Assembly: GCA_017521965.1 (NCBI GenBank)
Contig: JAFXAY010000097.1
Coordinates: 13,370 to 77,369, forward strand
DNA length: 64,000 bases
Source of the DNA: Tidjanibacter sp.
GTDB taxonomy: Bacteria; Bacteroidota; Bacteroidia; Bacteroidales; Rikenellaceae
Reading direction: 5' to 3'
Under the pieces are notes generated by a model. That model did no database searches, was not told the DNA's origin, and worked only from the letters and a program-made list of their open reading frames with translations. Positions 58,571 through 61,396 of the stretch are shown here, piece by piece. The position numbers and the translations under genes are program-made. The first letter of the stretch is position 1. Every line of letters begins with the position of its first letter.

Positions 58571-61396
58571 CTATTCCGAAAAGTTTCGTACTTTCGGCTT
58601 CACCCCCTCAGGAACAACCTCACCGGGTTGCAGGGGTGCAAAAATGGTTCTCTCGGTCGATACACGTCCATCGATATCCACAGCGCTATTTATAATGCTC
58701 CGGAGGTAGGCCTCGTTCTCCAAGGTGCACTGATACATATCGGTTACTACTCCATTTATCAACTTCAAAAGGTCGTTACACTCCCTGAGTACTTTGGTGT
58801 AGCTTATCGCACCCAGACCCAATTCCAACAGACCGGCAGTTGCACCCACCTGCTCGATAGTCAGCGAGGTAACACTCTCTTTCATATCCCTCAGAGCCTC
58901 GACTGTATAACCGTATTGGTCGAGAGTGTAGAGAATACGGAGGTCGTTGTGCCTACCTGTGCTTGTCGGGGTGTTGCTGAATAGTTTCACCGCCTTGCAT
59001 ATCTGGTTAGCCTCTGTTTCCAGATAGTAGGTGTGGATTGTGTACCACGGAGCCTCGTTCTTGATAGCCTTGGTGGCCTTCTCGTAGAGGTTTGCGATGC
59101 CCTGAATATAGTCGTCAATGGCTGTTACACCACATCTTCGGGGCTTTATCCAACCCTCAGGAAGTGTCAGGTTGGTCCAGCGGGGAGTCATCACCACAGC
59201 CTCCGCAGGGCGCATATCCTCGGGGACAATCAGCCCTTTCCTCTCCTTCGACACCTTAATATCGTGGAATACGTATGCCGCCGATGTTCCCTCGGTATTG
59301 GCGAGCCAGAACATCAACTGCTCACAACCGTCGATAGGTACGGTTACCGTCTGTGGCTCCATACCCTCAAACACTGCAAGCTCTGCCACCACATTGTGGT
59401 CTGCGCCGATTAGCAGTTTCTCCTTGCGCATACTGATATCGGGCTGGTAGGTGTCCGTGCCGAAGAATTGGGTGTCGCCCTCGGTCCTCAGACACTCCAC
59501 CGTGAAGGTAACGCTGTTGTACTCTCCGTAGGTGTTGAAGGCGGCACACGAGTTCTCCACTGCCTCGCCACCTGCTGCCAACATCATCAGACCTGCAACG
59601 TTCATCAACGAGGTACCAACCACAGCACCTCCAACCTGCACACCGATAGGCACAAAGGCAGCACCTACTGCCGCTGCTCCGAGCACACCTGCGCCAACGG
59701 TCTCCGACCCTGATAGTATACCGTGGTCGAGCGAGAAGTGAGTGCTGGTTTGGAGCACAAAGCCCTTGTGAATTCGGCTGTTATCGTAGCGGGTGAAGTA
59801 ATCCTTCTGCGACTTGCCATCGACAAAAGCACCATTTTTCGACGAACTCACATAGTGGAGATAGGGCGCACCGAGGTCTATGAGGTCAATCTCGTCGGGA
59901 CACTCAGGCACAGGGTGCACGAAGAGGTCGTTCTCAACCGGCTCACCACGATAGACCACAAGGTCGGCAACTCCATAAGCAGCAACGTCCAACGACCCTT
60001 GTCCTCGACTCTCGAATTTCAGTTTGCGACACTTGTTGATGGGTAGCTCGAAGTATTGGTTGGGGTAGGTAGGGTTGAGCGGTATCTCAAATATCAACTT
60101 ATCGTCGGCATAGATACTCAGCAGGTCGTTGTTCATCACCCAACTCTTACTCACATAGCCCACCGTGAAACTTACATAGTCGAACTCACCTCCGAGGTCG
60201 AAGATGGCGTGTGAGTGCACATCGTCGCTCAAAAAACCTGCGGTATTATAGAGAATAAAACCCTCGCTAAACTTCACTCCACCCATCGAGAAGGTGATAT
60301 AGTCCGACGTGCCATCGTAGAGCTGCTTATCCACATTGCTGCGGAGCGAGTAGGGCGGTATGTTGCTAATCAGCTTGCTGACGTCGGGCAACTCTTTCAG
60401 TCGTGGGTCGGGCGCACCTTCGCTCTCTTGTGCAGTCGCTGCTGGGGCCTCACCCTTCGGATATACCCACGCATCGACAATGCCCGCACCCTGACTACCG
60501 TGGGCCTGTTCGCTGGCAAAGGTGAGTTTCTTCACCCCCGCAATGTCGAGCGTCACCTGTCGGGCAATGTGGTGCTGCTCAATCTCGTATTCGTAGAGGA
60601 TTTTGTCGTCGCCAAGCACCGTAATCCAACCTCTGCCATTTGCTGCATCGTCGGTCACCAACGGGCCAACCGTGAATTGCAGCGTTTCGTAGTCGCCATA
60701 GAGGTTTAGGTGGGTCTCTTTTGCCCCATTACCAATGAGTTGCATCGAGAGATCCATAATCAGACCGTAGTCCCAGGTCTTGTTGCCGATAGCGATTGAG
60801 GTGAATTTATTGTCGGGTGTTACCCACTTGTGACCATTGTTGTTCGGCCCAGCATCACCGTTCATATGATAGGGCTTGATATCCTTGAAGAGCATCTTTT
60901 TCGTGGCATTCGGATTGGGCTTGCGTTGCAAATCGTGTGGTTGCTCTCCACTCTTCCATAGGGCAGCCTCGCAAAATGCCACCCTCAGCCCATTTTGTAC
61001 CTCCTTGAACTCTAATTTATTTACTCCGCTGATATCCAAAGTGATATGGCGAGGCAGGTCGGCGGGTTTGACTGCCGAGTCGAAAATTTTGCGTCCGTCG
61101 GCAAGTATGGTGACTAATGCCGGAACGTTATATATCTGATAATCAACAGGACCTAAGATGAAGGTTAGTTTCTCATATTTACCACCCAATTCGAAGGTGG
61201 CATTTCCCTCGTCCCAGAGTGTAAATACATTTTTCCACGTCTCTCCACCGTGGATGTCGATAGAGGACTCTACCTCGTAGTACTTCTCTGCGGTAGGCTT
61301 CAACGACTTGGAGATGTATGTCGGAGTCTGGGCATAGGCGGCAAAATAGAGTCCCAAAATGGTTATGGCGAGGGTTATTATGCGTTTCATAATCAT
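58571..61396 (-). CDS. secreted protein with four NPCBM-like beta-sandwich repeats, an embedded Gly/Ala hydrophobic segment and a helical C-terminal domain
   Basis: Signal peptide MIMKRIITLAITILGLYFAAYAQ. The pattern F.LGG.Y..L.F.VG...(V/I)..DG/DDK.(I/L)......(L/I)D(I/V).G...L.F recurs at about residues 40-148, 205-312, 365-483 and 540-712. Confidence 0.7.
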   Translation of the reverse strand: MIMKRIITLAITILGLYFAAYAQTPTYISKSLKPTAEKYYEVESSIDIHGGETWKNVFTLWDEGNATFELGGKYEKLTFILGPVDYQIYNVPALVTILADGRKIFDSAVKPADLPRHITLDISGVNKLEFKEVQNGLRVAFCEAALWKSGEQPHDLQRKPNPNATKKMLFKDIKPYHMNGDAGPNNNGHKWVTPDNKFTSIAIGNKTWDYGLIMDLSMQLIGNGAKETHLNLYGDYETLQFTVGPLVTDDAANGRGWITVLGDDKILYEYEIEQHHIARQVTLDIAGVKKLTFASEQAHGSQGAGIVDAWVYPKGEAPAATAQESEGAPDPRLKELPDVSKLISNIPPYSLRSNVDKQLYDGTSDYITFSMGGVKFSEGFILYNTAGFLSDDVHSHAIFDLGGEFDYVSFTVGYVSKSWVMNNDLLSIYADDKLIFEIPLNPTYPNQYFELPINKCRKLKFESRGQGSLDVAAYGVADLVVYRGEPVENDLFVHPVPECPDEIDLIDLGAPYLHYVSSSKNGAFVDGKSQKDYFTRYDNSRIHKGFVLQTSTHFSLDHGILSGSETVGAGVLGAAAVGAAFVPIGVQVGGAVVGTSLMNVAGLMMLAAGGEAVENSCAAFNTYGEYNSVTFTVECLRTEGDTQFFGTDTYQPDISMRKEKLLIGADHNVVAELAVFEGMEPQTVTVPIDGCEQLMFWLANTEGTSAAYVFHDIKVSKERKGLIVPEDMRPAEAVVMTPRWTNLTLPEGWIKPRRCGVTAIDDYIQGIANLYEKATKAIKNEAPWYTIHTYYLETEANQICKAVKLFSNTPTSTGRHNDLRILYTLDQYGYTVEALRDMKESVTSLTIEQVGATAGLLELGLGAISYTKVLRECNDLLKLINGVVTDMYQCTLENEAYLRSIINSAVDIDGRVSTERTIFAPLQPGEVVPEGVKPKVRNFSE

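Follow-up and report, generated by a model that had tools for sequence, protein, structure and literature searches.

The window analyzed here, a stretch of 64,000 nt from Tidjanibacter sp. (Bacteroidales; contig JAFXAY010000097.1 of assembly GCA_017521965.1), carries on its minus strand a gene, here called BIG, for a 941-amino-acid (aa) exported protein made up of four tandem CBM51/NPCBM-like repeats and a C-terminal domain, with a 47-residue uncharged loop inserted in the fourth repeat (Table 1). Together with the DUF1963 and f310 genes that adjoin its homologues at other loci, the system can be described as a CBM51-repeat protein with a built-in, putatively membrane-embedded hydrophobic loop, a C-terminal fold without known match and a DUF1963/f310 gene module. 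Databases label the family merely as "NPCBM/NEW2 domain-containing protein", and the literature searched held no paper describing the BIG family or its gene module, nor a description of DUF1963 being linked to an exported CBM51-repeat protein.

Table 1. Features of the BIG locus, with positions in the 64,000-nt window.
Feature	Position	Strand	Residues of BIG	Basis
BIG gene, 941-aa exported four-repeat CBM51-like protein	58571..61396	-		Open reading frame (ORF) list
Signal peptide, predicted signal peptidase I cut between AYA and Q	61331..61396	-	1-22	Hydropathy
Repeat 1 (R1), CBM51/NPCBM-like	60947..61327	-	24-150	Pfam, internal BLAST, AlphaFold2 (AF2)
Repeat 2 (R2), CBM51/NPCBM-like	60452..60904	-	165-315	Best Pfam stretch, residues 200-302
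Polar Pro/Ala/Glu-rich linker	60392..60451	-	316-335	Sequence
Repeat 3 (R3), CBM51/NPCBM-like	59942..60391	-	336-485	Internal BLAST
Repeat 4 (R4), CBM51-like sandwich split by insertion	59237..59914	-	495-720	Alignment, AF2
Uncharged Gly/Ala/Val-rich loop, 47 residues, TVGAGV...AAGGEA	59561..59701	-	566-612	Sequence
C-terminal domain	58574..59233	-	722-941	AF2: helix, small beta-sheet, one ~80-residue helix
f101 gene, 101-aa cytoplasmic orphan	58239..58544	-		ORF list; no signal peptide or transmembrane segment
Intrinsic-terminator-like hairpin and T-run, closing the two-gene unit	58173..58214	-		Read from sequence
Promoter-like TATCTTTG, candidate element 32 nt upstream of the BIG ATG	61428..61435	-		Sequence match

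Repeats, hydrophobic loop and C-terminal domain of BIG

A first-pass annotation, made from the letters of this DNA alone, had described four NPCBM-like repeats in BIG, and the searches bore this out. The Pfam NPCBM model PF08305 matches BIG in three stretches with an E value of 2.4e-15 and 57.2 bits (gathering cutoff 23.9), while a tandem paralogue at another locus, 36% identical to it, reaches 86.5 bits. The repeats also recognise one another in internal BLAST comparisons, with E values of 3e-10 for R1-R2, 7e-8 for R1-R3, 8e-6 for R2-R3 and 4e-4 for R2-R4. The fourth copy was recovered by comparing R3 with R4 after removal of residues 565-612, which gave one continuous alignment of 152 columns over the splice point (E 1e-6), so the hydrophobic segment is a true insertion in a loop of the fourth repeat.

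The AF2 model of BIG, built on 30 homologues, was confident for R1, R2, the second part of R4 (R4b) and the C-terminal domain, with the strands of R1 at a predicted local distance difference test (pLDDT) score of 70-90 and those of R4 at residues 502-549 and 615-716. A Foldseek search with this model retrieved the tandem CBM51 structures 2ygm/2ygl and 7js4, and also 2vmh/2vmg (TMt 0.68-0.70), so that the predicted structure agrees with the NPCBM-like fold proposed earlier. BIG thus resembles the CBM51/NPCBM modules of GH98, GH95 and ZmpB-type enzymes (2ygm, 2vmg, 7js4) in its beta-sandwich fold and significant hidden Markov model (HMM) match, and its repeats stand in tandem as in Sp3GH98 and ZmpB. 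It differs from their usual context in having no catalytic domain attached, as Pfam, NCBIfam and PDB searches detected neither a glycoside hydrolase nor a peptidase in BIG, nor any known family besides NPCBM. The loop joining the 'GF.L' strand to the 'A.F.L.G.Y' strand is extended in all four repeats, and in R4 it has grown into the 47-residue hydrophobic segment. R3 is 76-85% identical among homologues; the linker between R2 and R3 has a pLDDT of 25-31 and an identity of just 45-60%.

The position and the Gly/Ala/Val character of the insertion in the fourth repeat, as given in the first-pass annotation, were confirmed by sequence and alignment. The loop contains 11 Gly, 11 Ala, 9 Val and one Pro, has zero charged residues between E565 and E611, and closes with a conserved AAGGEA motif. 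Nine of its residues (G573, G578, G585, G589, G590, G594, G609, G610 and E611) are invariant in the 30 homologues. Relative to L009, the closest genome locus, its codons show 18 synonymous and 3 nonsynonymous changes, the lowest ratio of any BIG region, against ratios of 0.78 in R1, the fastest-evolving repeat, and 0.61 in the C-terminal domain. The loop is therefore the most constrained part of BIG, with purifying selection stronger here than anywhere else in the protein. Between homologues with an overall identity of 71-77%, the loop has an identity of 87-94%, and it is kept in the 36%-identical tandem paralogue (L002:3186-5972).

The loop had also been credited with GxxxG/GxxxA spacing and with a resemblance to SlyB-like glycine zippers, neither of which held. 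Small-xxx-small pairs number 8, compared with 10.1 +/- 1.8 in composition-preserving shuffles, and are thus not enriched; GxxxG occurs twice (2.2 in shuffles) and the strict (G/A/S)xxxGxxx(G/A/S/T) pattern is found 0 times (2.2 in shuffles). The Pfam HMMs Rick_17kDa_Anti and Gly-zipper_Omp/OmpA/YMGG gave no match to the whole of BIG at E <= 1 or to the isolated loop at E <= 10. Membership of the glycine-zipper class was rejected on the shuffle test together with the HMM scan of the isolated segment. SlyB/PCP-type lipoproteins do share with BIG that they are exported to the envelope and contain a Gly/Ala-rich uncharged segment in which two short helices would fit, and SlyB is a lipoprotein like the Clostridial relatives of BIG described below. 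However, BIG of the window is not a lipoprotein, its loop has neither HMM match nor zipper periodicity, and the loop sits within a beta-sandwich instead of forming an N-terminal hairpin. The sole Pfam echoes of the segment lie far below threshold (DUF6861 at E 0.05 with the whole of BIG and 0.74 with the isolated loop; TcdA_TcdB_pore at E 4.4 with the isolated loop), and those of the isolated loop are meaningless at such E values.

In the AF2 model the loop has a pLDDT of 22-27, with a weak helix tendency at residues 570-580 and 594-608. On the Hessa scale its best 19-mer sums to about +3.2 kcal/mol and the signal peptide to +2.1 kcal/mol, both by a simple sum that gives a crude estimate only, and these values suggest that the loop would traverse the Sec translocon instead of halting in it.

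Across the family, Bacteroidales have an uncharged run of 41-56 residues, 44-48 in most cases, and Clostridia have one single run of 24-32; typical loops are thus about 45 and 28 residues, respectively, a Clostridial example being MAGVAGAAVIGTMMTGWGLSILALAGSGEAH. In both groups the hydrophobic loop always terminates in LA(A/G)(G/S)GEA. A subgroup of ~1000 aa has a Ser/Gly-rich variant, and in a small number of members (P0170, L108) the loop is charged. Homologues without the insertion were also found, as the first-pass annotation had proposed to check; they are rare, the loop being essentially absent in P0153 and P0155 ("LQTLAVDSAERQPSCAAFNTYG"). The one loop-less homologue that could be placed on a contig (L117, 4.7 kb) has no DUF1963 gene, which proves nothing at n=1; its flanks, judged by eye from the translations, are presumably YihY-like and YhhQ-like membrane-protein genes. 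In P0127 (975 aa, from the representative library), an extra, highly charged Lys/Glu-rich stretch of ~45 residues directly precedes the hydrophobic segment, so the loop site tolerates further insertions.

The C-terminal domain had been described as a separate helical domain from residue ~730 onwards. It does form a separate and confident unit when modelled alone in AF2 (pLDDT 86, predicted TM-score 0.81) and is mostly helical; it spans residues 722-941 and contains a small sheet as well (Table 1). The conserved motif ELGLGAISY(G/T)K lies on its ~80-residue helix, whose occupancy of heptad positions a/d is modestly raised (0.59, against 0.45 in shuffles; p ~0.014) and is compatible with a coiled coil. 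No significant structural match was obtained with Foldseek (best E 0.15 in PDB and 0.08 in the viral database BFVD), and a sequence-profile search against PDB chains yielded nothing; CorA and TARP were rejected as relatives, being non-significant helix matches. The domain evolves fast yet is homologous throughout the Bacteroidales branch, and it is missing from the Clostridial relatives of ~700-760 aa.

Export signals and distribution of the family

The 941-aa ORF and its cleavable signal peptide, both reported in the first-pass annotation, are supported by the ORF list, by hydropathy and by conservation around the cut. The N-terminus of BIG is MIMKRIITLAITILGLYFAAYA, followed by Q after the cut, as is typical of signal peptidase I substrates, and among the 30 homologues Q23 is invariant and A22 nearly invariant. 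Signal peptidase I sites of Bacteroidetes favour Gln at +1 (the 'Q-rule'), which the invariance of Q23 fits. A hydrophobic N-terminus is present in each of the 58 full-length homologues from Bacteroidales; 55 of these have no lipobox, and neither does BIG of the window. In contrast, 22 of the 24 Clostridial forms carry a lipobox of the type LAGC followed by G, and because of it they would be lipoproteins tethered to the producer's own membrane and not diffusible. No match to the C-terminal sorting domain of the type IX secretion system (T9SS; Por_Secre_tail / TIGR04183) was found in Pfam or NCBIfam, and the C-terminus of BIG is helical, not an Ig-like sandwich as in T9SS cargo; the same two databases revealed no other secretion tag.

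A word-indexed search returned 457 homologues in Bacteroidales, with lengths of 933-958 aa for all of the 120 matches listed, whilst an exhaustive search with BIG residues 490-941 yielded just 77 representatives among 1.84 billion proteins. The 76 species-level loci all belong to metagenome-assembled genomes (MAGs) of uncultured animal-gut Bacteroidales, the closest being from Tidjanibacter sp. with 83% identity. The second branch, that of the ~700-760-aa proteins, occurs in MAGs of Clostridia (Oscillospiraceae and other Eubacteriales) from ruminant hindguts. The whole family is restricted to uncultured Bacteroidales and Clostridia of animal guts. At the DNA level, the closest loci have the two-gene unit of BIG and f101 in common but not the flanks.

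L002 harbors two BIG paralogues in tandem (L002:3186-5972 and L002:6001-8820), which are 36% identical and each contain the hydrophobic loop; f310 and DUF1963 lie before the pair, f104 and f101 after it. At L003:9175-12065, BIG has no downstream partner gene and abuts HTH_17, DUF3408 and MobC/NikA-like genes, which are typical of conjugative or mobilisable elements of Bacteroidales. P0134 (646 aa) stops inside Repeat 4 and continues, as judged by eye, as a stretch resembling the C-terminal part of a UvrD-type helicase; it is most likely an assembly chimera and not a real fusion.

Neighbouring genes and transcription unit

To define partner genes, every ORF lying up to 3.5 kb from BIG at the 76 loci was clustered de novo. 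DUF1963 (PF09234, YwqG/TYPP) was found at 46 of them, or at 30 of the 43 that have both flanks, always on the same strand as BIG and equally often upstream and downstream of it (23 loci each). A further family, f310 (220-311 aa), adjoins BIG at 36 of the 76 loci, and the gaps among the three genes measure 2-30 nt. The linkage extends to the Clostridial lipoprotein forms, which are joined by a DUF1963 homologue at 14 loci (hhalign 99%), often with stop/start overlap, and by a protein with the f310 C-terminal domain at eight loci (hhalign 99.5%). This domain of ~72 residues has the motif (G)FCHxxW...K...L...GIEWRSPxxxNPRVxFD in both Bacteroidales and Clostridia, while the N-terminal parts of the family differ (examples are L007:8869-9807 and L105:2175-2837) and resemble tetratricopeptide repeats (TPR) in Clostridia. 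No Pfam domain was detected in f310, and its homologue search yields 'hypothetical protein' entries alone. None of BIG's partner proteins has a signal peptide. Other recurrent neighbours are BspA-type leucine-rich repeat (LRR) and TPR/Sel1 proteins, and no neighbour gene matched known immunity or defence families (Pfam Imm/SUKH, PADLOC). The match of a conserved BIG neighbour to PF09234 places it with YwqG/DUF1963, the TYPP group that includes the eukaryotic PDCD2/Tsr4 chaperones; to our knowledge, no function of DUF1963/YwqG has been demonstrated in bacteria. Both DUF1963 and f310 are absent from the window by tblastn, and the first-pass annotation could not see them for this reason.

In the window, BIG is accompanied by f101, whose ORF begins 26 nt past the BIG stop codon. 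Its coding signature is clear (57 differences at third codon positions, but only 24 at first and 20 at second positions), and it is 59-68% conserved in the closest loci. It had been suggested that BIG might be a toxin with the 101-aa product as its partner or immunity protein, and the evidence weakens this. The gene does not always co-occur with BIG, adjoining it at only 8 of the 76 loci, and it forms only 7 clusters in a database of 5.8 billion proteins; the conserved partners are instead DUF1963 and f310. Moreover, an immunity protein against a membrane-active toxin is expected to carry a signal peptide or a transmembrane segment, and f101 has neither; it also lacks matches in Pfam, NCBIfam and PADLOC. 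In five of the eight loci (L013:9219-10046, L014, L015, L016 and L018), the f101-like sequence, ~98 residues long, is the N-terminal part of a larger protein of 273-283 aa, whose C-terminal extra part has no detectable relatives. As a universal partner f101 was rejected on its low frequency and tiny family, and it is a clade-specific accessory gene that fills the downstream slot here. Grouping f101, f104, f123 and the Clostridial c108, c113 and c88 as one divergent family was also rejected (hhalign < 10%).

The shared terminator noted in the first-pass annotation was found by eye 3' of f101 (an automatic hairpin scan overlooked its 12-nt loop) and consists of a 10-bp GC-rich stem (58214-58205 / 58192-58183) and a T-run (58180-58173), in the layout GGGGTTGTCC-12 nt-GGACAACCCC-AT-ATTTTTTT. 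Upstream of BIG, TATCTTTG fits TAnnTTTG, which we take to be the -7 promoter consensus of Bacteroidetes. Because of this promoter-like match and the terminator downstream of f101, BIG and f101 look like a single transcription unit.

Further features of the window lie around this unit. A tRNA-Gln(TTG) gene (61566-61637, plus strand) stands 170 nt upstream of BIG in divergent orientation; a tRNA-linked island was considered and rejected, since BIG and f101 lie on the 5' side of the tRNA and a tRNA was not met again at any other locus that was checked. Between it and an alkaline phosphatase gene (61871-62968, minus strand), an 18-pair hairpin with T-runs on either side (61810-61853) is probably a bidirectional terminator. 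On the other side, a 69-aa AbrB/MazE-type (SpoVT-AbrB) gene (57838-58047, minus strand) overlaps by 4 nt the start of the next gene, which encodes a 370-aa Acyl_transf_3 membrane acyltransferase (56729-57841, minus strand); such an acyltransferase is an unusual companion for a DNA-binding protein that resembles antitoxins. The stretch at ~20000-34000 has a G+C content of 0.33-0.40 and a strongly positive GC skew, in comparison with 0.48-0.57 in most of the window, and could represent an island of foreign origin or a locus for glycan synthesis.

Possible roles of BIG and its partners

We tentatively favour the reading that BIG is a resident glycan-binding protein of the envelope, held at the membrane by a re-entrant hydrophobic loop. 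BIG would be exported by Sec and would stay with the producing cell, its four CBM51-type beta-sandwiches presenting a glycan-binding surface to an envelope or environmental glycan. The loop of the fourth domain, grown to ~45 uncharged residues, would fold back as a re-entrant hairpin in a membrane, on its extracytoplasmic side. In Bacteroidales this would be either the inner membrane, entered from the periplasm, or the outer membrane, within its inner leaflet; in Clostridia it would be the cytoplasmic membrane at its outer face, in addition to the N-terminal lipid anchor. The Bacteroidales-specific C-terminal domain would most likely oligomerise through its ~80-residue helix. This reading is the most economical. 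The Clostridial lipoproteins keep the loop, and the Bacteroidales forms possess neither a lipid anchor nor an outer-membrane export signal; in the latter the loop is about twice as long as in Clostridia. The first-pass suggestion of a surface anchor gains support as far as anchoring is concerned, through the shorter loop that the Clostridial lipoproteins retain. Jelly-roll beta-sandwiches that penetrate membranes by hydrophobic loops offer an analogy: the discoidin/C2-type domains (factor V/VIII C2, lactadherin), which belong to the same galactose-binding-domain-like fold class as CBM51, bear hydrophobic membrane spikes. Those spikes, however, are a few residues long, and the loops of the BIG family measure 25-55 residues and are far more hydrophobic.

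The cytoplasmic partners DUF1963 and f310 may act on the BIG precursor before export, for instance by shielding the hydrophobic loop. A role of DUF1963 as a pre-export holdase for the loop is plausible because TYPP/DUF1963 proteins are predicted to bind extended peptides in a chaperone-like manner (PMC4275035), and eukaryotic PDCD2 is reported to be a dedicated chaperone (PMC7736825). We interpret BIG, DUF1963 and f310 as a module that appears to have moved between phyla in animal guts.

Several observations weigh against the resident-envelope reading. The very low AF2 confidence in the loop means that the hairpin is not confidently predicted, and its Hessa-scale sum makes it marginally hydrophobic for a membrane helix. 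Cytoplasmic partners are unusual for a Sec substrate, and about 30% of the loci, including this window, have no DUF1963 or f310 nearby. The variable small genes, the LRR/TPR/Sel1 company, the tandem paralogue and the scattered genomic positions look more like a conflict or accessory system.

An alternative, in our judgement an unlikely one, is that BIG is a lectin-targeted membrane-active toxin, antibacterial or host-directed, whose repeats bind a target glycan, whose hairpin permeabilises the target membrane, whose C-terminal coiled coil oligomerises and whose cytoplasmic neighbours protect the producer. Hydrophobic segments of hairpin type occur in colicin pore domains, in TH8-9 of diphtheria toxin, in the TcdA/TcdB pore region and in viral fusion peptides, and the BIG loop, with ~45 uncharged Gly/Ala/Val-rich residues, has the size and composition of the helical hairpins of pore-forming toxins; in such toxins and fusion peptides, too, an uncharged Ala/Gly/Val-rich segment of ~40-50 residues belongs to an exported protein. 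BIG differs from these: no helical bundle surrounds the segment, the sequences are not significantly similar, a membrane immunity protein is missing, and the homologues of BIG are tethered lipoproteins. The echoes of DUF6861 and TcdA_TcdB_pore, which might be counted for a toxin, lie far under threshold and are joined by no Imm/SUKH or toxin family match. A toxin would agree with the variable and mutually unrelated small genes beside BIG, with the tandem paralogue, with the accessory distribution over two phyla, including one locus that abuts conjugative-element genes, and with the fast evolution of R1 and the C-terminal domain. However, the lipobox would retain the Clostridial homologues on the producer, no route over the outer membrane is evident in Bacteroidales, which have neither the T9SS C-terminal domain nor a lipobox, the partners are soluble proteins of the cytoplasm whereas pore-formers have immunity proteins in the membrane, and f101 is confined to few loci. 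The toxin/immunity reading is thus weaker than that of a resident anchor.

A different conflict system, acting in phage exclusion or defence or in inter-strain discrimination, in which BIG would sense or act at the surface while the LRR/TPR proteins, DUF1963 and f310 would be its components in the cytoplasm, would suit neighbourhoods rich in BspA-type LRR, TPR/Sel1 and orphan small genes, the cassette-like variation among loci and the restriction of shared sequence in the closest loci to the two-gene unit. We regard it as quite improbable: PADLOC matched none of the components, the linked genes include no nuclease, NTPase or other effector typical of defence, phage genes were not seen in the vicinity, and only a hairpin turn of a few residues could connect the extracytoplasmic BIG with cytoplasmic proteins. 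Very improbable is an AB-type toxin in which the repeats bind a receptor, the hairpin translocates and the C-terminal domain is delivered as an enzyme that immunity proteins in the cytoplasm neutralise. The order of binding, hydrophobic and C-terminal parts and the cytoplasmic neighbours would agree with it, but the C-terminal domain, in which a single long helix predominates, shows neither the fold nor a motif of an enzyme; it is not polymorphic but homologous in the members that have it, and relatives entirely without it still keep both the loop and the partner genes. Finally, the low AF2 confidence and low-complexity composition of the loop might indicate a mere flexible linker without specific role, a notion effectively refuted by its conservation: it is the most constrained region of BIG, nine of its Gly/Glu residues are invariant in the 30 homologues, its length is conserved within lineages, and, uncharged and with a single proline, it is unlike the real linker at residues 316-335.

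CBM51/NPCBM domains are known as passive sugar-binding appendages of glycosidases, and in BIG the fold is the whole protein; a constrained loop of membrane-hairpin size within one CBM51 copy would be a new coupling of glycan recognition to the membrane. If BIG were only an anchored adhesin-like protein, as the resident-envelope reading allows, the interest would be modest. We consider it doubtful that BIG, DUF1963 and f310 form an unrecognised horizontally mobile system, common to gut Bacteroidales and Clostridia, in which the lectin-repeat protein delivers a hydrophobic hairpin into a membrane and the TYPP protein serves as a dedicated cytoplasmic holdase or immunity factor; if true, this role would be the first assigned to a bacterial DUF1963, and BIG would be a new glycan-targeted membrane-active effector or a new membrane anchor within a CBM fold. 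Study of the module could give DUF1963 a role and could bring to light either a new lectin that organises the envelope or a new system of antagonism within gut communities.

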